DNA of 64,000 bases from Planctomycetota bacterium. Lineage in GTDB: Bacteria; Planctomycetota; PLA2; JAEUHO01. Every line of letters begins with the position of its first letter. Within the stretch, counting starts at the first letter, position 1. Positions 1 through 11,478 of the stretch are shown in pieces. The notes below the pieces were generated by a model. The model saw only the letters and a list, made by a program, of their open reading frames with translations, did no database searches and was not told where the DNA came from. The DNA is taken from contig CBDCTJ010000001.1 in assembly GCA_965222115.1 (NCBI GenBank), positions 320,001 to 384,000 of the forward strand. The letters run 5' to 3'. The translations under genes were made by a program, and so were the position numbers.

Positions 1-324
1 CGCGCGAAGGGATGCAACCGTAGCGGTCAACTGAGCGCCAAAGTCAATCGGGGCAGAATCGTTGCGCTGTGACCACAGATAAACACTCACGCCTACGGCC
101 AAGATTGCCGCTACGGCAGCAAGGAGTGGCGCAACCTTGACGTGTTTCGTTCGAAGTTCACGCAGCATGAGTTGCGCTTCTGGATCAGCGGCAAGTCGGC
201 GTTCTAACCGAAGCCGTTTCAATGCGGGGAGTGTGCGCTCGATGTAAGCCGCGATGGTGGAAGGGTCCACGTCGGGGTGCTTCCTAAGCAGATCCGCAAT
301 GCGATCGTCTACGTCCTTGTTCAC
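1..324 (-). CDS. Putative membrane anti-sigma factor, running off the left edge of the window
   Basis: Not in the ORF track; translated by hand. GTG at 324 overlaps the ECF stop (GTGA). Reads MNKDVDDRIADLLRKHPDVDPSTIAAYIERTLPALKRLRLERRLAADPEAQLMLREL, then a TM helix (LLAAVAAILAVGVSVYLW), and stays open to base 1. Confidence 0.75.
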   Translation of the reverse strand, partial: MNKDVDDRIADLLRKHPDVDPSTIAAYIERTLPALKRLRLERRLAADPEAQLMLRELRTKHVKVAPLLAAVAAILAVGVSVYLWSQRNDSAPIDFGAQLTATVASLRA

Positions 325-1229
325 TGGTCTCGCTCCCTCGAATCTCGCTCTAGCTCCGCCGCGCCACGCTGCAACATGAGGTCCAGCGCAGCAACAAGTC
401 CAGGCCAATCCCTACCCACATCAAGCCCTTCGGCGGACACGCGCTTACCGAGTGCCACTCGTAACTTCTCGCAGGCGGCACGGAGAATTCGTGTCACCCG
501 CGGTGGACTAATTCGCAAAGCCTTCGCAATCGCCCGTTGTGGAAGTCCATGGCGGTACTTCAACACGATCACTTGAAGTTGGCGTGTGGTCATTGCTTCC
601 CACGCCGACGCCAACGCCTCCGAGACGATCCGCTCACTCTCGGCATCCATGAGCGCCGATACGTGCGACTTGGTTCGCGCCGGGACAGATTCATCGATTT
701 CGCTGGTGCCACCGGCGCTATCGCGACGCCAGCGGTCTACAGAACGTCGCCAGGTAACCGTCGCGAGCCAGGCGAATAGAGAGCCTCGTCCGTCGTAGGT
801 GCCCAGACGGGTACGCGCATTGCCGGATGTCGGCGGTACGGCAAGCGCGCCCCAGAGTTCACTCAGGAGTTCGCGCGTGTCACGGGACGTGCTACCGCGG
901 CGACGCATGAGTGCTCGGAGTGGTTGGGTGTAGCGACGCTCCAAGCACTCCCATGCCCCGTCGGCGCGAACATCGCACGCGGTGGCCAAGAACATGTCCT
1001 CCGCATGTAGCGGTTCGCCTCGTGTTTGCATGGCGTGAGCGAAGGCCTCGTAGGGCAACGACACCTCGGGATAGGCGCGGCAACCGAGCGCGTAGGTACG
1101 TTGCTGCCAATGGGCACTGCCTTGGAGAGAACCGCCCCGGCCGGTGTCTAAAGGCCCTACGGTCGAACGAACACCTTGACGCGGTGGCTGATTGGCGCGG
1201 ACGTTGGCGGCAGAAAACCGGCGACTCAC
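321..1229 (-). CDS. ECF sigma-70 factor with N-terminal extension (resembles the Myxococcales-type TIGR03001 family)
   Basis: Motifs EDMFLATAC and LGTYDGRGSLFAWLATVTWRRSVDRWRR (region 2); region-4 HTH LKYRHGLPQRAIAKALRISPPRVTRIL; GAGGAG SD before the GTG. Confidence 0.9.
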   Translation of the reverse strand: MSRRFSAANVRANQPPRQGVRSTVGPLDTGRGGSLQGSAHWQQRTYALGCRAYPEVSLPYEAFAHAMQTRGEPLHAEDMFLATACDVRADGAWECLERRYTQPLRALMRRRGSTSRDTRELLSELWGALAVPPTSGNARTRLGTYDGRGSLFAWLATVTWRRSVDRWRRDSAGGTSEIDESVPARTKSHVSALMDAESERIVSEALASAWEAMTTRQLQVIVLKYRHGLPQRAIAKALRISPPRVTRILRAACEKLRVALGKRVSAEGLDVGRDWPGLVAALDLMLQRGAAELERDSRERDQ

Positions 1230-1363
1230 GACGGACTCCTCACGTCACCATGATGGCATGGACACCAAAGTTGACGGGGGCGATGTGGAAAATTAACCCC
1301 AAAAGAACAGGAGAATCGCCACCCGCCCGAAACTGCGCGTTCACAGCCTGTTACGCTGACTAC

Positions 1364-4273
1364 ATGAGGTCGAGGATTCTGCTCTTTGCGATGCTGATCG
1401 CTATGCAGGGCCTGCCCTACGCCCAAGCAAAAGATGAGAAGGCGGAGGGTGCCTCCAACGCTGCGAACGTGCTGGAGTTCGTCCGTCAGATTCGCGACAC
1501 CCTGGAGAAGAAGGAGGCGGATCGCGCGCGGATGATACTTATGGCGTCAAAGTGGGATGCGTGGATCGTGATCGAATCACTGGCGCGTGAACTAGCATGG
1601 GACGCCGCTAAATTCGCCGCCGACGTCTACAAAGACAAGGTTCCGGACGGGGCCGAGCTCGCGTCATACGTCGCATGGCGGCGACTGCATCCAATGGGAT
1701 CTACGCTCGACGGCGTATCGAAGGTGGTTTCGCTCCAAAACAAGGCGATGGATCCGAACGTTGCGCCCACGGAGAGGAAACGCTACGAGCGCTTGCTTGT
1801 TGCCGCAGAAGCCGCGGGGGCCATTCGATGGTTCAATCGAGAAAACACGCTGTTGATGCGCGCGCAAGCTATCGCACAGAAGAGCAAGCCGCAACTCCCC
1901 TATCTCCCCATCGTTGAACGCCGCCTGACGCTCGCGGAAGCGGTCGGCATGGACGCGAGCAAGATCTGGCGATACCTCGACTTCCTTTGTCGCGAATACT
2001 CATCGCGCCGCCAATTTGAAAAGGCAAACGCCTATGCGGCACGTTCGCTCAAGCTCGCGGCGGACGACGACCAACGATCCAAGTCGCTGAGACGGCTGGT
2101 GACGCTTGCGTCGAAGCGCGGCGAGTCCACGCAAGTAATTCGGTATGTTCGCGCGCTTCGTGCATTGGCAGCACGACATAAGAATGCGGTAGGCGTTGCT
2201 GCGGCCGACATTAAGTGGGCAGCGGCCGACGCGACACTCGGTCGACCCAATGCTGCCATGGCGCGACTCGAGCCCGCGCTCGAGATTCTAGAAGCCCACG
2301 GCACCAAAGAACATTTGCGTGGCGGGCACTTGCAGGCTGCAATGATCGCAATTACAAGTAATGATTTCGAGCGGACGCTCCGTCATGTTGCTCGTGCAGA
2401 TGCCGCGTCGAAGGGGCTCCCTTACAAGGACTACCGACTCCGACAATTTGAAGCGCACTCGTTGTGGGCGTTAGGCGAGCAGGATGAGGCTCGGCGGGTG
2501 CTGGACGAATTACTTGAACGAATCCCAGTCCACGAACGGGAGGAGCGCGCGAAAACAATCGCGATTCAAATCATGTACGCGAATCGCGCGACTGATGTAG
2601 TCGAGAATGAAGCCCGACTGGCCGAACTCAGAACCCTACGGGCTAACTCAACGTCGTCCTCGGCAGTGGCCCAACTCGCGTTCTGTGACATGAAGGTTGC
2701 GTTTCAAAAAGGGCTGCATGCTGAGGCAATTCGCGCAGGAAAGAGGGCAAGGCTGCACGCAGAGCGATCCGTGAATCCGCTGGATCAGATTCAAATCGAC
2801 TATCTCCTCGCGCGCGCCTATGTCGCCTTAGGTGAATACGCGCATGCAAGACGGCAAATCAAAGTGACGCTTCGCCTTCTCACAGAGTATTCAGAATCCA
2901 TGCCCGAGCAAATGGGCGTCACGTTTCGCGAACCACTACGCTCGATCCCGCAACTCGCCGCTGATCTCGCTAGCAAACAAGAAGACTATGAAGCGTTGTT
3001 TCAGATCGCGGAGCGCGCGTTCGCGGTCACACTTCGAGGCCGTGTTGGCGAAGAGGCAACAACGCAACAGGCGCTCTCGAAGGACGATCGAGACCGATTG
3101 GACGAGCTGAGGGCGAAGGAGTCGCGAGCCGCGAAACAGCTTCGTATCTCAGCGATTGCGGACGCAGGCAAGCCTATCGAGTCGCGCGCCGGTGCACCGA
3201 CGCCGCAGGTGGCGTGGGCCAACGTCCAGGATGAACTTGAGCGCCATCGAACGGCCATTCGAGCCAAGAACGTTATTGCGGGCCAGATTCTATATCCCGT
3301 GATCGATACATTCGCGAGTGCGCAAAAACGACTGACGGCAGCGGAAGCACTACTTGTGCTGATTCGCGGCACGTCTGTCGTCCACGGACTCGTCATTACG
3401 TCGCAGTCCGTTCGTTACATCGACCTGGGATCCGCTGATGAATTCGAAAGCGCGATCCGCGATCTTACATTGAGCGATCCGCTCTCGGACGAGAAGGCGG
3501 AAGTCGAGCGGTTGCACGGACTCGTTGCCAATCCAGTCAAGCTGCCTCCGTCAGTGCGGCACATCGCGGTCATGGCACAGGAAGGTTTTTCGCGTGTCCC
3601 CTACGCGGCAATCTGGCCGACACGCGAAGTACGCATGATCCCCTCGGCCACCGTAGATCGACTGCTTAATGAACGCGCTGACGACGGCAAGGGCATCTTG
3701 GCACTCGCAGATCCACGTGCGAAGGATGTGCCGAGACTTCCGGGCGCCAACCGCGAAGCACGAACCATCGGCACCACTGTATTGGTTGAAGACAAGGCTA
3801 CCGAACCATCTTTCAACCAAGCATTGCGAAGTGAGCCGTCGTGGCGATCGATTCACATTGCATGCCATGCGGCCATGAACAATGAACACCCGTTACGCTC
3901 GGCACTCATACTTGCGCCCACCAAAGACAGCGATGGCTTGTACACCGTTTCCGAGCTCCTTGGCGCACGCATCAATACAGACCTTGCCGTCCTTGCCGCG
4001 TGCTCCGCTGGGCAACGCAGTTGGATGGACTTCGAAGGCGCCATGACATTTACGCACGCCTTCTTTGTCGCCGGTGCAAAGCGTGTGTTGGTGAGCCTGT
4101 GGGATGTCAATGACGCTGCATCATCCGCGCTGTTGACCAAGTTCTATGAATTCTGGACACCCAAGACGTCTCCGGCAACAGCATTGACCAAAGCGCAGGC
4201 ATGGATGCGAACGAAAAAGAAGTGGGCTCACCCAGCATTCTGGGCAAGTTGGCAGCTTTGGGGAGCACGCTGA
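1364..4273 (+). CDS. Exported TPR-CHAT (caspase-like, clan CD) protein 1
   Basis: Start moved to ATG 1364 (signal peptide MRSRILLFAMLIAMQGLPYAQA; TGtTACGCT box 6 nt upstream). Helical TPR-like body; CHAT motifs IHIACHA, VLAACSAG, AGAKRVLVSLWDVND, HPAFWASW. Confidence 0.9.
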   Translation: MRSRILLFAMLIAMQGLPYAQAKDEKAEGASNAANVLEFVRQIRDTLEKKEADRARMILMASKWDAWIVIESLARELAWDAAKFAADVYKDKVPDGAELASYVAWRRLHPMGSTLDGVSKVVSLQNKAMDPNVAPTERKRYERLLVAAEAAGAIRWFNRENTLLMRAQAIAQKSKPQLPYLPIVERRLTLAEAVGMDASKIWRYLDFLCREYSSRRQFEKANAYAARSLKLAADDDQRSKSLRRLVTLASKRGESTQVIRYVRALRALAARHKNAVGVAAADIKWAAADATLGRPNAAMARLEPALEILEAHGTKEHLRGGHLQAAMIAITSNDFERTLRHVARADAASKGLPYKDYRLRQFEAHSLWALGEQDEARRVLDELLERIPVHEREERAKTIAIQIMYANRATDVVENEARLAELRTLRANSTSSSAVAQLAFCDMKVAFQKGLHAEAIRAGKRARLHAERSVNPLDQIQIDYLLARAYVALGEYAHARRQIKVTLRLLTEYSESMPEQMGVTFREPLRSIPQLAADLASKQEDYEALFQIAERAFAVTLRGRVGEEATTQQALSKDDRDRLDELRAKESRAAKQLRISAIADAGKPIESRAGAPTPQVAWANVQDELERHRTAIRAKNVIAGQILYPVIDTFASAQKRLTAAEALLVLIRGTSVVHGLVITSQSVRYIDLGSADEFESAIRDLTLSDPLSDEKAEVERLHGLVANPVKLPPSVRHIAVMAQEGFSRVPYAAIWPTREVRMIPSATVDRLLNERADDGKGILALADPRAKDVPRLPGANREARTIGTTVLVEDKATEPSFNQALRSEPSWRSIHIACHAAMNNEHPLRSALILAPTKDSDGLYTVSELLGARINTDLAVLAACSAGQRSWMDFEGAMTFTHAFFVAGAKRVLVSLWDVNDAASSALLTKFYEFWTPKTSPATALTKAQAWMRTKKKWAHPAFWASWQLWGAR

Positions 4274-4356
4274 TTCGGCTTGGTTCAAGGCGCATAACGT
4301 GTGGGACCGTGTCACGCCGTAGTTGCAATCATTCCAGTCGTGGAAATACTGATGTC

Positions 4357-7251
4357 ATGCGAGCGAAACCTCGAATGTGTTCACGCGTGATTCTATTGGC
4401 AATGTCTCTGCTAGCCATTTCATCACTGATGCCAGTGTTCGCCGAAGAACCGCTCCTCGCAAAGCCCGTTCAAACGTACGCCAAGACCATTGCAGAAGCC
4501 GTTGACGAGGGAGACGACGCGAAGCTGGATGCACTCGTAGCCAAGAACACGCATGACCCGTGGCTCGTTGTAGAAGCACTATTGGCAAAGGACGATAACA
4601 AGGCCGCACACCAACTTGCAGTTCGATTGCCGGCATCGCCGGACACACGCCAACTCGCTTCCTACATCAAGAAGTGTCAAGGCGCCGCCCGTGTAACGAT
4701 CGATCGAGTCTCTTCCCTTCTCCGTGATCTTCGCAATCTGGAGCAAGATGAAGCCAAAAATGACCTCGATTTCGATGCGACGGCCCGGTTGGCCATTGCC
4801 GAGCGGGCGCAGGCACTCGGTTGGCTCTCGTTCGCAAGCAGGATTCTCGATCTGAGCCACGCGACGTCAAAACAGGACGCTGCATTCACGCTCAAGTGCC
4901 TTCAGTTGTGGATTGCGGTCGAGCAACATCGGGAACAACCCGATCGTGAAGTGCGAGTGCGCGGAGCGATTGCCAAAGTTCTTTCACAACAGCAGCGTCC
5001 GCGCGAAGCGCTGGCTTATGCCGAACCGGCCCTGCGGCTTAAGTTGCCGTCGAAACTGAGGCACTATGCGCTTGTGATGAATGTTTCGTTACTCGTGACG
5101 TTAGGCGAGAACGCGCGCGTGCTGGCGCTGGTACCCGAGTTGCGCAAACAAACTACCGCACAGAAGAACGCGATTGGCACAGCGATCGTGGATCTGCAAT
5201 GGGCCGCCGCCAACGCGAATTTAGGCCGACCCGCAGCGGCGCTTGCTCGTCTCGATCATGCCCTACGAGTGATCGAAGCTGCGGGCCCGATCCACCTACA
5301 ACAGTCTGCTCACATGCAAGCTGCCAATATCGCGATCATTCACAGAGATCCCGAGCGGGCGACAAAGCACGTCCAACGTGCGCGCGCAAAGGGTCAACTC
5401 AACAAGATCGTTAGGCTGCATTTGGATCGACTGGAGGCAGATGCGCTGTTTATGATGGGGCGCATTGACGATTCAATGCGTGTCACACGAGGGTCAGTTC
5501 AACAAATTCCCAAGAACGACGTGCGGTCGCAGACACCACCCCGCACTCGACTCATGTCGCTCCATCTCGCGAAGCGAGACGTTGACGCGGCAAAAATTGA
5601 GCTGGACTGGCTGACCAACGTGCTTCAGTCCGGCGCGCTCGATGCAAAGTTGCGCCGCGAAGTTGTGCGAAACATCTGCTATTTTTATGTCTTCACCGGC
5701 GCCTACGAACGTGCACTGACAATAGCCGAGCGCGAACTTGCACGAGAGACAGACTACGATGACCCTGCCCATCGACGAGGGCTTCGGTACCACGCGTCTC
5801 AGGCGGCACTTCAATTGGGCGCAACCGACAAGGCGCTGCAACACGTAGACGCGTTGATCGCGCTCACGGTCGATACCACCAATGAAATGCCCGAACGCAC
5901 ACTGAAAGAGTCTCGCGCTAGTTGGGTCGGTTTGGCGACCATGGCCATCGATGCGGCTATGGCCGCCAAGGATGCAGGTCGAGTTGTCTCCTATCTTGAA
6001 CTCATACGCGCCGTTTCGACACGGGCTCGAATTGGCGTGGAGCATGTGGAGTCACGCACGCTACGCAAAGAGGATAAGGAGACGCTCGACAAACTTCGTG
6101 ACGCGGAACGCATGACCATCGCCGCGTTTCAGAAGTTGAACGACGACAAATCGAAGCTCGCCACTACGAAGCGAGTGGAATTGGTGAAGCGGCTATCATC
6201 GATTCGCGAATCACTCGCCGAGCGGAGAGAGGCTATTCGGGCGCAGCGAGTCGTTGCTGGACACATACTCTACCCCTCCGTTGACTCGCTCCGAGATGTA
6301 CAACTGCGATTAGCAGCCGATGAGGCCTTTATCTACTTCGCGTTTGGACGGGTACGAGCTGTGGCGCTGCTTGTCACAGCCAAAGCGACAAAACTAATGA
6401 ACCTTGGCATGCGTTCTGACGTTGCTTCGGTACTGGAAGGGCTCGCGATTGGTGATTCCATGTCATCTTCGGAAGAGGATCTGGAAATACTGCGAACGGC
6501 GATCGGCAAGCCTTTGGCGCTACCGAAGCACATTGTGCGCGTGTCAATCTCCGGCGAAGCCGCATTCACCCGGGTGCCGTACGCACTGCTTTGGCCTACG
6601 CGTGAGATTGTCATGGTCTCCTCCGCCACCATTCAACGCCTGCTCCAGACGGAGTCGAGTTCGGGTAAAGACGTGCTGGCCGTAGCCGATCCAGCGGCGC
6701 CGAACGTCTCGCGGCTTGTTGGCGCACGGGCCACTGCAACATCCATTGCCACGCGCGTACTTGCCGACAAGGACGCGACGGAGGAAGCGATCGATATCGC
6801 GCTCAAGCGAAAGGAACGTTGGCGAAGCGTACACTTTGCGTGTCATGCAGCGATGGATGAAGCGAAGCCCCTGCAATCAGCGTTGCTCGTATCACCGTCC
6901 AAGCACAACGACGGCTTTATGACCGTCTTGGAGCTCCTGGACGCCTCGGTTCAATCTGAGTTGGTCGTGCTGGCAGCTTGTTCTACGGGGACTCGCAATG
7001 CGCGCGATGTGGACGGGACCCTCACATTCGTGAATGCATTCTTCGTTTCGGGCGCAACCCGCGTCATTGTTAGTCTCTGGGACGTCAATGACGAAGCTAC
7101 GGCGGCGCTCTTCAAGAAGTTCTACGCCCTGTGGAAGCCGGCGACGTCACCTGGCGCAGCGCTAGCGAAGGCGCAAGCATGGATGCGAACTCAAAAGAAG
7201 TGGAAGCATCCGGCGCACTGGGCAGGGTGGCAGATATGGGGACCGCGGTAA
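4357..7251 (+). CDS. Exported TPR-CHAT protein 2, tandem paralogue of protein 1
   Basis: Signal peptide SRVILLAMSLLAISSLMPVFA; motifs VHFACHA, VLAACSTG, SGATRVIVSLWDVND, HPAHWAGW; C-terminus nearly identical to protein 1. Start is 4357 or 4375. Confidence 0.9.
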   Translation: MRAKPRMCSRVILLAMSLLAISSLMPVFAEEPLLAKPVQTYAKTIAEAVDEGDDAKLDALVAKNTHDPWLVVEALLAKDDNKAAHQLAVRLPASPDTRQLASYIKKCQGAARVTIDRVSSLLRDLRNLEQDEAKNDLDFDATARLAIAERAQALGWLSFASRILDLSHATSKQDAAFTLKCLQLWIAVEQHREQPDREVRVRGAIAKVLSQQQRPREALAYAEPALRLKLPSKLRHYALVMNVSLLVTLGENARVLALVPELRKQTTAQKNAIGTAIVDLQWAAANANLGRPAAALARLDHALRVIEAAGPIHLQQSAHMQAANIAIIHRDPERATKHVQRARAKGQLNKIVRLHLDRLEADALFMMGRIDDSMRVTRGSVQQIPKNDVRSQTPPRTRLMSLHLAKRDVDAAKIELDWLTNVLQSGALDAKLRREVVRNICYFYVFTGAYERALTIAERELARETDYDDPAHRRGLRYHASQAALQLGATDKALQHVDALIALTVDTTNEMPERTLKESRASWVGLATMAIDAAMAAKDAGRVVSYLELIRAVSTRARIGVEHVESRTLRKEDKETLDKLRDAERMTIAAFQKLNDDKSKLATTKRVELVKRLSSIRESLAERREAIRAQRVVAGHILYPSVDSLRDVQLRLAADEAFIYFAFGRVRAVALLVTAKATKLMNLGMRSDVASVLEGLAIGDSMSSSEEDLEILRTAIGKPLALPKHIVRVSISGEAAFTRVPYALLWPTREIVMVSSATIQRLLQTESSSGKDVLAVADPAAPNVSRLVGARATATSIATRVLADKDATEEAIDIALKRKERWRSVHFACHAAMDEAKPLQSALLVSPSKHNDGFMTVLELLDASVQSELVVLAACSTGTRNARDVDGTLTFVNAFFVSGATRVIVSLWDVNDEATAALFKKFYALWKPATSPGAALAKAQAWMRTQKKWKHPAHWAGWQIWGPR

Positions 7252-7661: not shown

Positions 7662-9434
7662 TTGGCACTTCTTCAGCTCAAGTCCCTTTCCGTCGCATTT
7701 GGCGGACCACCGTTGCTTGACGACGTGAATTTGTCGGTCGAGCGGGGTGAACGACTCGCGTTGCTGGGGCGCAACGGATCGGGGAAGTCCACGTTGATGC
7801 GCGTGATTCATGGCTCCCTTGAACCCGACGAAGGCCGTGTGATCAAGGAGAGCCGTGCCCGCATTGCGATGTTGGATCAACGCGTGCCCGACGACCTCTC
7901 CGGAACGATTGAAGAGGTGGTTGTGTCCGGTGCGGGTTGTATCCCCCACCGCGCAACGGAACGCCACATTGCGCGCGCCACCATTTCGCGTGCTGGCCTG
8001 GACGGCGAATTGGATGTGGCCACACTGTCGGCAGGGCTACGACGACGCGTGCTGATTGCTTCGGCGATTGCAAGCGATGCCGACATTCTTCTGTTGGACG
8101 AACCCACCAACCACTTGGATCTCGATTCGATTGCGTGGCTGGAGTCGCTCATTCTTCGAGAAGACAAGACATTGATCTTTGTCACACACGACCGAGCGTT
8201 TTTGCGTCGCATCGCAACCGGCATTCTCGATCTCGATCGGGGCACCGTTGCACGCCATGACGCCGACTACGACAAGTACTTGGATCGCAAGAGCGGTGCA
8301 CGCGAATCGGAGACGCGCAAGCGCGCGCAGTTTGACAAGGTGCTTGCCCAAGAAGAGTCGTGGATTCGTCAGGGCGTCCGCGAACGCCGCAAACGCAACA
8401 TGGGCCGCGTGAGTCGACTGAAGGAGATGCGCGAGGCGTATCGAACCCGTCGCAGCGAGAGCGGTACGGCGCGTATGACGGCCCAAGAAGCCGGACGGAC
8501 GGGTCGCAAGGTCATTGACGCCAAAAACGTGAGCTACGCGTGGGACGGTATGCCCATAGTGTCGGCATTTTCAACCACGATCATGCGCGGAGATCGTATT
8601 GGATTGATTGGTCGCAATGGCTCGGGCAAAACCACGTTGGTGCGACTGTTGTTGGGTGAATTGGAGCCCTCATCGGGTGACGTGACGCACGGCGCGAATC
8701 TGGAAGTGGCCTACTTTGATCAGCTCCATGCCACGCTCGACCCCAGCAAATCGGTCGCCGACAATGTGGGTGACGGAAGTGCCACGATCACGGTGAATGG
8801 TGCTACACGGCAAGTGATTGGCTACCTCGCGGAATTTTTGTTTACGGCCGATCAGGCGCGCAATCCGATTTCCCATCTGTCGGGCGGTGAACGCAATCGT
8901 TTGTTGCTGGCGCGTCTCTTCGCACGTCCATCCAATGTGCTGGTGCTGGATGAACCTACGAACGATCTCGACGTAGAAACACTCGAGGTCCTTGAAGACT
9001 TGCTGGTCAACTACAACGGTACGGTCATCATCGTGAGTCACGACCGCGAACTACTCGATCATGTTGTCACAAGTACGCTCGTCATGGAGGGCAAGGGGCG
9101 CGTTGGTGAGTATGCAGGCGGCTATAGCGACTGGTTGGCTCAGCGAAAAGCCTCGGCGCCGGCCGCCAAAGCGAAAAAGTCAAAGTCGAAACCCAAACCT
9201 ACGACGAAACTGCCGCCAAAACTCAACAAAGACGAACGCAGAGAGCTGCGTGAGCTACCCGCACGCATTGAAAAACTAGAATCCAAGCAGGCCGCGCTAC
9301 ACACCAAGATGACCGACCCCGCCTACTTCCAGCAGACCGGCGATGTCCTCGCCCGCGACAAGGAAACGCTCGCCGCACTCGACGCCTCCATCACCGCCGC
9401 CTACGCCCGCTGGGAAGAACTCGACAACCGCTAG
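7662..9434 (+). CDS. uup: ABC-F family ATPase Uup
   Basis: Two ABC domains (GRNGSGKS/T, LSGGE, LDEPTN), no TM segments, C-terminal coiled coil ending ARWEELD; AGGAG SD before the TTG. Confidence 0.9.
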   Translation: MALLQLKSLSVAFGGPPLLDDVNLSVERGERLALLGRNGSGKSTLMRVIHGSLEPDEGRVIKESRARIAMLDQRVPDDLSGTIEEVVVSGAGCIPHRATERHIARATISRAGLDGELDVATLSAGLRRRVLIASAIASDADILLLDEPTNHLDLDSIAWLESLILREDKTLIFVTHDRAFLRRIATGILDLDRGTVARHDADYDKYLDRKSGARESETRKRAQFDKVLAQEESWIRQGVRERRKRNMGRVSRLKEMREAYRTRRSESGTARMTAQEAGRTGRKVIDAKNVSYAWDGMPIVSAFSTTIMRGDRIGLIGRNGSGKTTLVRLLLGELEPSSGDVTHGANLEVAYFDQLHATLDPSKSVADNVGDGSATITVNGATRQVIGYLAEFLFTADQARNPISHLSGGERNRLLLARLFARPSNVLVLDEPTNDLDVETLEVLEDLLVNYNGTVIIVSHDRELLDHVVTSTLVMEGKGRVGEYAGGYSDWLAQRKASAPAAKAKKSKSKPKPTTKLPPKLNKDERRELRELPARIEKLESKQAALHTKMTDPAYFQQTGDVLARDKETLAALDASITAAYARWEELDNR

Positions 9435-9468: not shown

Positions 9469-11478
9469 CTAACGGAGGGAGTTGAGCGCGGATTGCGTTA
9501 GGGCACGAATGTAGGGATCACTGGATCTCACATTCTTCTCGAGTACCTGCATTGCTGCCGCCGGACGCTCCTTCAGTGGCTTGAGCACATTGGCCAATGC
9601 GATGGCAGCGTAGCCGCGCCCCTGAAACGACGAGTCGCCCAGAAGTTTCACCAATGGTTCGATGGCGGGTCGTCCAAGCGCCTGCAGCCGGGCGACGATG
9701 CGATTGTTGGTAATGCGGTGGGCATTGCCATCTCGCAGACGCTTTGCAAGAGCGGCGGGATCGTCGCCCTCCCACGGGACGTCAGTGCCGGCGCGCTTGA
9801 TTGCCTTCGCTTCTTCCGCCGTGACGGCGTCTCGCGCGTCGGATAGGCCCTTCCAGGTGAGTCCCGAGGCGCGCAACCCCGAGCTGGACAACCCCCGAAC
9901 GTAATCGCTCTTGTGCTGGAGCCCGCGTACGAGTGCCATCTTCGCAGCGAGTGGGTGACTCTTTGTGGCCCCCATGACTTTACCCAAGGCGTATGTTGCG
10001 TACCCACGGCCGAGGTAATTCTCGTCGTTCAAAACCTTGAGCAGTGCGTGAAGTGCAGGTGCGCCTGTCTTTACGAGTTTCTCGACGAGCACATTGTTGT
10101 TGGACACATGTCGATTGCCGTCGCGCAGTTGTTGAGCGAGTACGACGGCATCATGGGGCGGATCATTGCTGGGCGCGCCGCGATCGGGACTTTCCCTGTC
10201 TCCCGAAGACTGGGGTCCGGACGACGTTGGGCCCGCCGCGCCACCGTTCGGTGCCGAATTCGGCGCATTAATCTTCCATTCCTTCTGGTCATAACGTGGG
10301 CGAAGCTTCCTGTAGATCATGCACGACGTGTTGTGCTCCTGCTCAATGTGATGCGTTCCAATGTTGCCCTCGTACTCCGATCCCCCGAGTTCCGGATTGG
10401 GATAGGGCATCGTTTCGTGAACCGCAGCAATCTTCGCGCGCATGGCGAGGCGACTCTGCCGCCGTTCGTGCCAGATCCACATCCAGTGAAAACGCGCCCA
10501 GTCGCGTTCGCCCGCAAACCACGAGGCCACGCCCAAGGAAAAGTGAATGTCGGTCGCTCGTGGATTCGCGTCGTGACGATGGACAACACTGCGACCCAAC
10601 GCTATTGCTGCCTTGTGCTTCTTCTGATGTACCAACAAATACAAAGATTCCGCATCGAGGTCTGCCGCGAGGATGCTGCGAATCGCCTCATCACCTTCGC
10701 GAACTCGCTTGATTGAATTACCGAGCGCTTCCCATTGCTCAGTTGCGCGCTGCATTCGCATGCGTGCCCGAGCGATCTCCGCGCGTTCATTCACACGTGT
10801 GTCTTTCCCAATCGCATTCAGCGTTGCCATCGCGTCGTCATAAGACGCGAGTCGTTCATACAAGCGCGCCAGCACAAGCCTTTCCGCGACGGACGCACCT
10901 TCCGCCATGCCTCGCTTCTTGACTCGCTCTTCCTCTTGGGTCCACGCCGCGAATTTAACGTGTTTCCTCAGAAGTGAAGCCAGCCACTCGCGTGCTTGGT
11001 TTTTGTCTGCATAGATGGCGGACTCATCCAAGTACGTACCATCGGGCGCAAATGCCGCCAAGTAGGCATAGGGGTTCTTGGTCTTGTCTTTGGTGAACGC
11101 GCTTGCTTCTGCGTTTCCACCCCGTCCGTTGCCACTACGATTGAAGTAGTACGGCACAAATCGGCTGTTGACGAGATGGATGAACGGCAAATCGGCGAAG
11201 GCACCTGCCCTCTGGGGTTCGGCACCCGGTCACCACATGCCGTCGGTTGCGCACTTGGCACCGGCATCGTCGATGCCAAAGGAAACGCCTTTGATGAGCA
11301 AGATTCGGTTCTTTGACTTTGCTTCCTTGAGCGCATCGGAAAACTGATGAGGCAGTTTCCACTGAATAGCCGCGCGATCCCGTGCCCAGCCCGGATGCGC
11401 CTCCTTGGCGTCTACGGGGCTCGAGGACCAGATGAATATCGAAATGCAGGTCGCAGATATCCAACCGAACGAACGCAT
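9469..11478 (-). CDS. Exported selenoprotein candidate: SelN-like thioredoxin fold, TPR region and duplicated HEAT-like domain, Sec at codon 83
   Basis: ORFs 11230..11493 and 9469..11190 are in the same frame, separated by one TGA (11232-11230) and 13 sense codons: GIDDAGAKCATDGMW-U-PGAEPQRAGAFADLPFIHLVNSRFVPYY. GGAGG SD before ATG 11478; signal peptide. Confidence 0.8.
11200..11226 (-). promoter_or_regulatory. Candidate bacterial SECIS hairpin
   Basis: mRNA GGUGCC-GAA-CCC-CAGA-GGG-CA-GGUGCC begins 3 nt after the UGA; the G-containing apical loop lies about 16 nt from the UGA. Confidence 0.5.

Follow-up and report, generated by a model that had tools for sequence, protein, structure and literature searches.

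The first 7251 positions of the 64,000-nucleotide window analysed here (G000:C1:320001-384000, where G000 is a Planctomycetota metagenome-assembled genome (MAG) of 4.55 Mb in 7 contigs, 90% complete) hold four genes, in which a sigma factor of the extracytoplasmic function (ECF) type and its membrane anti-sigma factor on the minus strand are divergent from two tandem genes for TPR-CHAT proteases on the plus strand. As judged from gene neighbourhoods, the ECF/anti-sigma pair and a TPR-CHAT protein predicted to be exported form a conserved unit: a TPR-CHAT gene lies in the examined stretch at 30 of 37 loci of this anti-sigma family. The nearest known system is DdvA/DdvS of Myxococcus xanthus, whose DdvA is the one anti-sigma factor known to bear a protease, and the locus is a split form of it. 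Tentatively, and with confidence just short of even, we read the unit as a three-component trans-envelope cassette in which the exported TPR-CHAT would be a ligand-gated site-1 protease acting on the outer domain of the anti-sigma factor, followed by RseP. The features of the locus are as follows; L002 is a stretch that includes 12 kb to the left of the window, taken to complete the anti-sigma gene.

1..324, minus strand: 5' part of the anti-sigma gene, an open reading frame (ORF) with 540 nt more to the left of the window (full gene L002:11461-12324, 287 aa)
321..1229, minus strand: ECF-type sigma factor, longest ORF 302 aa (Pfam, TIGR02937 and an alignment of 13 homologues)
1230..1363, no strand: divergent intergenic region, 134 bp if the ECF start is at 1229, with GGAAAATTAACCCC at 1287-1300 and TTACGCT 7 nt 5' of the CHAT1 ATG
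1364..4273, plus strand: CHAT1, predicted exported TPR-CHAT protease of 969 aa (Pfam CHAT, AlphaFold2 model, Foldseek)
4357..7251, plus strand: CHAT2, predicted exported TPR-CHAT paralogue of 964 aa (Pfam CHAT, dyad intact, sister of CHAT1)

A preliminary description of this DNA had proposed most of this layout, and it largely holds. The translational coupling claimed for the sigma and anti-sigma genes agrees with the GTGA at 321-324, where the anti-sigma start GTG (324-322) overlaps the ECF stop TGA (323-321), and the leftward extension that it called for completed the anti-sigma protein. The two tandem paralogues of about 960 aa are confirmed by their lengths and their Pfam matches, and are co-directional with a gap of 83 bp. 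The divergent region of 134 bp stands for an ECF start at the GTG at 1229; sigma homologues are conserved only from about residue 40, and thus the sigma start codon and the exact length of the spacer are not fixed.

Conserved linkage among homologues, named beforehand as a check, is borne out by the count given above. The 37 loci consist of the window, 16 loci fetched from related genomes, 17 with a match to the periplasmic domain and three more in G000. For the first set, the anti-sigma protein was searched in 41 related genomes and up to 20 kb was fetched round 16 of the 19 non-self matches, leaving out three that covered residues 13-71 only; by tblastn, the sigma gene was present at 16/16 of these loci and TPR-CHAT at 15/16, the single miss (L037) being a 6-kb contig. 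When 301 genomes that sample the phylum were searched with a profile, 17 had the anti-sigma family, including 7 of the 10 from the window's own family and members of several other families. The second set came from 19 further places, two of which were set aside for a match to the N-terminal domain only, and had TPR-CHAT in the stretch at 12/17 loci and sigma at 13/17; CHAT was missing at L064, L067 and L069, at L059, whose contig is 4 kb long, and at L068, where the match lies at the end of its contig. Three of the seven CHAT-less loci are thereby on short contigs or at contig ends.

Moreover, the association is found in more than one arrangement and in more than one lineage. The loci come from at least seven numbered families (f1, f2, f20, f34, f35 and f55 among the listed places, and f68 by an N-terminal-only match) and have three gene orders, namely CHAT divergent from ECF-antisigma, CHAT-ECF-antisigma and ECF-antisigma-CHAT. 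No fourth conserved gene was found when all ORFs of L002 and L023-L038 were compared with each other: beyond the three genes, nothing recurred in four or more loci except shadow frames. The cassette has also multiplied within genomes, with up to eight matches in one relative and four complete cassettes in G000 by a six-frame hidden Markov model (HMM) scan, which placed those outside the window at:

G000 C7:2712845-2717803: cassette 2, CHAT-ECF-antisigma
G000 C7:2805896-2811015: cassette 3, ECF-antisigma-CHAT
G000 C7:2971568-2983302: cassette 4, with 7 kb and an IS110-family transposase between anti-sigma and CHAT

G000 has five full-length members of this TPR-CHAT subfamily, and each of them lies in one of these four ECF/anti-sigma cassettes. 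The loci are mutually related, and 30 of 37 is not a statistical test. It could be argued that the genes are neighbours by chance or by shared ancestry only, with no functional link between them, and many of the loci do come from one family of related MAGs and are not independent. We consider this highly improbable, since the linkage persists in three gene orders, in paralogous cassettes of one genome and in several families, and was kept across the IS110 insertion in the fourth cassette of G000; survival of the linkage through rearrangement, within-genome paralogy and insertion argues for a functional link.

Two observations on the G000 cassettes may be added. The IS110-family transposase of cassette 4 is at L076:8251-9384 (minus strand; G000:C7 about 2979250-2980384) with Pfam scores of 69 and 54 bits, and the same gap holds two ORFs that lack any Pfam match. 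At G000:C7:1521551-1522795, a sigma fragment (profile positions 59-172) is directly followed by an anti-sigma match of this family (E 2.9e-12) with no CHAT within 100 kb, and this is probably a decayed cassette.

Both proteases are assigned to the CHAT domain family with a wide margin. Against Pfam CHAT (PF12770, clan CD; cut-off 24), CHAT1 scored 146 bits (1.8e-42) and CHAT2 143 bits (1.6e-41). CHAT1 begins with a signal-peptide-like segment (residues 1-22); TPR-like helical repeats then extend over about 600 residues, and the CHAT domain covers about 650-969. The intact His/Cys dyad noted earlier for both proteins is there: in CHAT1 it is encoded at 3866-3868 (His835) and 4001-4003 (Cys880), and in CHAT1 numbering both residues are invariant in 14/14 aligned family members. 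With the Pfam match and the dyad, CHAT1 and CHAT2 are predicted proteases. The AlphaFold2 model of CHAT1, built with 14 family members (mean predicted local distance difference test (pLDDT) 85.4), starts with a signal region that is disordered, continues in helical repeats (28 to about 643) and is completed by an alpha/beta domain. The helical array thus stands directly before the CHAT domain in the model, as in separase, craspase and DdvA. When this model was compared with the PDB by Foldseek, the top match was DdvA (8rot_A, 8rw5; E 2.3e-13), followed by human separase, Csx29 in Cas7-11 complexes and yeast separase. Separases occupied positions among ranks 3-11 and Csx29 among ranks 9-35, and the top 35 were almost all DdvA, separase or Csx29, with chains of the ciliary central apparatus at ranks 23, 27, 31 and 33. 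In searches by sequence, among the best 60 of 239 PDB matches of the CHAT profile at E <= 1, 8rot_B/8rw5 (E 2e-7) was the sole CHAT-domain match and the stronger ones were all generic TPR proteins, and phmmer with the single sequences of CHAT1 and CHAT2 returned 0 PDB matches at E <= 0.01.

The TPR-CHAT proteases are predicted to be extracytoplasmic, as the preliminary description had proposed from their N-termini. By eye, each N-terminus has a basic n-region ahead of a hydrophobic core, with an end of the A-x-A type (MRSRILLFAMLIAMQGLPYAQA followed by K in CHAT1, and an end in VILLAMSLLAISSLMPVFA followed by E in CHAT2). A home-made scan for hydrophobicity and charge, whose rule was a start codon, then K or R, then a hydrophobic window, recognised signal-peptide-like N-termini in 24 of 27 related CHAT ORFs; the other three have a hydrophobic stretch and no clear start.

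The sigma factor scored over the cut-offs of Pfam Sigma70_ECF (27.3, cut-off 21.1), Sigma70_r4 (31, cut-off 24.1) and Sigma70_r4_2 (26.1, cut-off 25.7), and of NCBIfam TIGR02937 (55.0 bits, cut-off 42.9). With regions sigma2 and sigma4 only and a match to a curated ECF model, it belongs to the ECF group (group 4) of the sigma-70 family. The best subfamily model was TIGR03001 (Myxococcales family 1) with 62 bits, far under its cut-off of 154.6, and hence the protein is not placed in that subfamily. The alignment of 13 homologues also has a conserved N-terminal extension before region 2. When a 6-row sigma alignment was searched against named genome records, 16 loci were obtained, all from MAGs, of which 15 were labelled Planctomycetota, Planctomycetia or Planctomycetaceae and one 'uncultured bacterium'; several of these are the same contigs as relatives from the genome search.

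For the anti-sigma factor, no Pfam or NCBIfam model scored over threshold, and its assignment comes from profiles and structure prediction. A profile of 18 homologues matched the anti-sigma factor RslA in the PDB (3hug_B, 3.2e-5, positions 7-63) and FN3 consensus proteins (FN3con, 1.1e-4, positions 131-198), with a weak match to the N-terminal domain of DdvA (8rlz_A, 0.018). In the AlphaFold2 model from the same number of homologues (pLDDT 89.6), four helices (1-60) are followed by a transmembrane helix (65-87), a short linker and helix, a beta-sandwich (136-213) and two helical hairpins (216-283), and Foldseek matched it best to the C-terminal domain of MtxA, which is Ig plus helix, and then to FN3 modules. 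The predicted N-terminal helical domain, the transmembrane helix and the adjoining sigma gene are those of a class I anti-sigma domain protein. In the translation, charged residues precede the transmembrane helix, and therefore the topology would be N-in, C-out.

The H-x3-C-x2-C signature of zinc-binding anti-sigma (ZAS) proteins is absent. There is no Cys in the first 59 residues, nor in five of the six closest relatives (one Cys in L027), and because its N-terminal domain lacks Cys, the protein here is not a ZAS. More distant anti-sigma paralogues from cassettes have 2-4 Cys in the N-terminal domain, so that the family appears to span zinc-less and, probably, zinc-binding forms. Arg132 is invariant in 18/18 homologues and mostly followed by Gly. 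A separase-like ExxR site before this Arg was considered and rejected, since the P4 position is not conserved, and we claim no cleavage motif.

In an exhaustive search, the anti-sigma profile found 25,573 relatives at E <= 0.001 and 496 at E <= 1e-30; a near-length word search found only one, the word index being insensitive here. Among the best 150 profile matches, about 100 are full-length proteins of 273-354 aa. In the representatives library, the FN3-like part of the profile (about 130-210; L002:11695-11935) also matches giant proteins, the longest of 7,296 aa, in as many as 64 repeated stretches.

The preliminary description had taken the Csx29/Csx30 pair of type III-E CRISPR as the nearest precedent, and this did not stand: the NCBIfam Csx29 model NF041237 matched CHAT2 only, with 28 bits against a cut-off of 300, so that neither protein is a Csx29, and DdvA/DdvS is nearer. 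Craspase couples the TPR-CHAT protein Csx29 to release of an ECF-like sigma factor (CASP-sigma/RpoE) by cutting the inhibitor Csx30, as outlined in PMC10028731. The protease fold is similar, as the Foldseek ranks above indicate. In contrast with craspase, which is cytoplasmic, RNA-guided and bound to Cas7-11, the proteins here have signal-peptide-like N-termini, and the flanks that were examined showed no Cas gene. The module was also claimed to be CRISPR-independent, which agrees with PADLOC: five cassette and neighbour proteins tested gave no CRISPR or other defence match. Eukaryotic separase likewise has a TPR-like helical superstructure before a caspase-like domain, but at about 11% identity this likeness is remote and confined to structure, and location and substrates differ.

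In anti-sigma factors of the DdvA type, the CHAT active site is without the three-helix motif that separase and craspase have. DdvA carries TPR and CHAT modules in an outer domain of about 900 residues, according to PMC6061681. PMC11506125 reports the structure of DdvA-DdvS (PDB 8ROT, 8RW5 and 8RLZ) and that removal of TPR-CHAT exposes DdvA to RseP; it proposes signal-induced CHAT autoproteolysis in trans as the site-1 step, with validation awaiting the signal. In its main text, DdvA-like fusions are reported only from Myxococcota and one Comamonas. Like DdvA/DdvS, the present system has an ECF sigma with a single-pass anti-sigma that would hold it and whose anti-sigma domain is of class I, a TPR-CHAT of the separase/craspase type that has the His-Cys dyad and is predicted to be on the periplasmic side, and an available site-2 protease of the RseP type, since G000 encodes elsewhere a Peptidase_M50 protein of 669 aa that resembles RseP. 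It differs in several respects. DdvA is one polypeptide with ZAS, transmembrane and periplasmic TPR-CHAT parts, the last being its C-terminal domain, whereas here a 287-aa anti-sigma with an FN3-like outer domain of its own and an N-terminal domain that lacks Cys stands beside separate genes for two exported TPR-CHAT proteins. Unlike DdvS, the sigma has the N-terminal extension, and no 8rot chain was among 20 PDB matches of the sigma profile. DdvA/DdvS controls an adjacent CBASS/CRISPR-Cas defence island; here, neither CBASS nor CRISPR genes were seen in the surrounding 10 kb or so, and the phylum is Planctomycetota rather than those of the fusions named in that main text.

That a periplasmic caspase-like protease gates an ECF sigma has already been published as a hypothesis (PMC11506125, PMC6061681). 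What is new here is the split architecture and its occurrence in a phylum other than those of the reported DdvA-like fusions. In the literature searched, no paper describes the split form and only the two DdvA papers were relevant; supplementary tables (S7 of PMC11506125 and those on ECF-group context of PMC7826278) may list such neighbourhoods, and in the main text of the ECF reclassification paper PMC7826278, 'CHAT' and 'caspase' have 0 occurrences. In the split version, protease and anti-sigma can be expressed individually, and binding, cleavage and a Cys-to-Ala control become testable in trans, which makes it a tractable test bed for the unproven site-1 mechanism of DdvA. Coupling of sigma factors to CHAT is also no curiosity confined to myxobacteria.

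In the mechanism that we tentatively favour, the anti-sigma would hold the sigma factor at the membrane in the resting state, and its outer domain, FN3 plus helical, would be the docking site of the periplasmic TPR-CHAT. The fast-evolving TPR region would read a ligand, probably a protein or peptide, which would make the caspase-like site active, upon which the TPR-CHAT would cut the outer part of the anti-sigma as a site-1 protease; RseP and cytoplasmic proteases would complete the degradation and set the sigma free. In the RseA/DegS/RseP pathway, a single-pass anti-sigma receives a periplasmic site-1 cut and is then processed by an M50 site-2 protease. The site-1 enzyme proposed here differs from that pathway: it would be a caspase-like cysteine protease of clan CD that has a TPR sensor and is encoded in the same cassette, not a PDZ serine protease. 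By analogy, the scheme would be the in-trans counterpart of the autoproteolysis that has been proposed for DdvA, where anti-sigma and periplasmic TPR-CHAT are joined in one polypeptide, which provides a Rosetta-stone argument (PMC11506125).

Modelling of the CHAT:anti-sigma complex had been suggested as a check. CHAT1 180-969 with anti-sigma 90-287, both with alignments, gave a score of 0.42 (runs 0.45, 0.42 and 0.41), and all three controls gave 0.00; partner pLDDT did not fall below 79, and at least 71% of contacts were common to the runs. In calibration, the mark was reached by 58/80 solved complexes and 2/110 mismatched pairs, and scores of 0.60 or less comprised only 7/80 solved complexes together with both mismatched pairs that passed. 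The linkage gives a strong prior, and hence the odds of a complex are raised a little; the model lends weak support to a CHAT1:anti-sigma complex and does not bear on cleavage.

Several observations weigh against a site-1 protease acting in trans. The score of 0.42 falls in a band where wrong predictions outnumber right ones, except for guesses that were already likely. The outer domain of the anti-sigma is a compact, confident AlphaFold2 fold, with blocks mostly >90, and that model has no obviously disordered cleavage loop besides the short juxtamembrane linker. The signal peptides were assessed by eye and with a simple script, not with SignalP. Four CHAT-less loci (L064, L067, L069 and C7:1521881) are not at contig ends, and because of them the anti-sigma family can exist with no adjacent protease. 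Four more CHAT proteins of G000, with different N-terminal halves, have no sigma of this group alongside. Finally, a fused form of the anti-sigma was sought among longer proteins and none was found, which is weak evidence.

The compact outer domain would also suit a protein that shields rather than cuts. In such a system, TPR-CHAT would bind the outer domain of the anti-sigma and sterically block RseP, and upon a signal the protease would leave, destroy itself or cut a third protein, the anti-sigma not being its substrate. This finds a parallel in DdvA, which becomes exposed to RseP once TPR-CHAT is removed (PMC11506125), and it agrees with the conserved linkage, with the modelled complex as far as it goes, and with a compact outer domain that has no evident cleavage loop in the model. 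The invariance of the His/Cys dyad in all 14 members argues that catalysis matters, and only three genes recur at these loci, which leaves no candidate for the third protein; we hold shielding to be unlikely.

The last but one and its predecessor, the CHAT-less loci and the orphan CHAT paralogues, are also what would be expected if the proteases were the output of the system. The anti-sigma would then sense through its own FN3-like domain and a conventional site-1 protease, and the TPR-CHAT genes would be the main regulon of the sigma factor, for example as exported proteases against foreign or envelope proteins. Divergent or same-operon placement is equally expected of a target gene, and the divergent spacers upstream of CHAT have a motif in common. 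By eye, GGAATTGCCCCC is common to eight related divergent spacers (L023, L024 and L026-L031), with the window form GGAAAATTAACCCC at the position given above; read toward the sigma gene, the same spacers have CAA(T/C)TC-N17-TA(C/G)AGT, and a TAC(A/G)CT hexamer lies 7-10 nt 5' of the CHAT start codon. The position of this hexamer hints at a leaderless CHAT mRNA. The motif was not seen in the other three cassettes of G000, and its four genome-wide regular-expression matches were located elsewhere; hence it was not used to define a regulon. Scans for consensus promoters and terminators gave no more sites than in shuffled sequence. On the other side, the membrane face that bears TPR-CHAT in the fused precedent DdvA is the sensing one, the predicted complex scored well over its controls, and cassettes of the order CHAT-ECF-antisigma have the protease gene upstream of the pair and co-directional with it. 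We therefore regard a pure output role as somewhat unlikely, and retain the site-1 protease as our working proposal.

The preliminary description had left open whether the two paralogues are two inputs, a cascade or a heterodimer. CHAT1 and CHAT2 are 34% identical end to end, with 27% identity over the N-terminal 640 residues against 47% over the C-terminal 330, i.e. the TPR part, the presumed sensor, has diverged more than the CHAT domain. In a quick IQ-TREE maximum-likelihood tree of 38 C-terminal halves, the two are sisters (SH-aLRT 99), and the phylogeny indicates that they arose by a recent, lineage-specific tandem duplication. Another tandem TPR-CHAT pair is found in a genome of another family (L070:3339-9671, minus strand), after sigma and anti-sigma, and its members are sisters as well (SH-aLRT 100); since each pair consists of sisters, tandem duplication has happened independently at least twice. 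In L070, 1.5 kb separates the sigma from the anti-sigma match. Recent duplication together with TPR divergence fits two inputs better than an ancient obligatory pair, and most likely the two paralogues give the same sigma factor two different inputs. What the sensors read could be sought in the natural series that is provided by the paralogous cassettes and by duplicated proteases whose TPR parts diverge. A wider generalisation, which we put forward as a doubtful possibility, is that anti-sigma factors with an FN3 domain, as a large family, have exported TPR-CHAT proteins as their site-1 proteases, ligand-gated and acting in trans, and that tandem duplicates with divergent TPR regions wire two extracellular inputs into one sigma. 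If true, this would amount to a layer of caspase-type proteolytic signalling in the bacterial periplasm, with DdvA as no more than its fused special case.

The genes within about 10 kb of the cassette encode an ABC-F ATPase, a HEAT-repeat protein, an HExxH protein and a metal ABC transporter. The ABC-F type ATPase (window 7662-9434, plus strand; two ABC_tran domains and ABC_tran_CTD) and the 573-aa HEAT/TPR-repeat protein (window 9469-11190, minus strand) are both ordinary-looking and not conserved with the cassette. At L002:9934-11388 (minus strand), 72 bp downstream of the anti-sigma gene, lies an exported 484-aa protein with an HELTH (HExxH) motif, for which Pfam gave sub-threshold matches only (BSP peptidase 17.6 bits, cut-off 23.8). 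As a fourth component of the cassette it was rejected, being present in 0/16 related loci, and it may be a lineage-specific operon member or target. Further to the left, at L002:1551-5183 (plus strand; G000:C1:309551-313183), is a 1210-aa ORF whose translation has an ECF-sigma-like start, a hydrophobic segment and about 950 beta-rich residues, and which looks like a sigma factor fused to its own transmembrane and outer domain.

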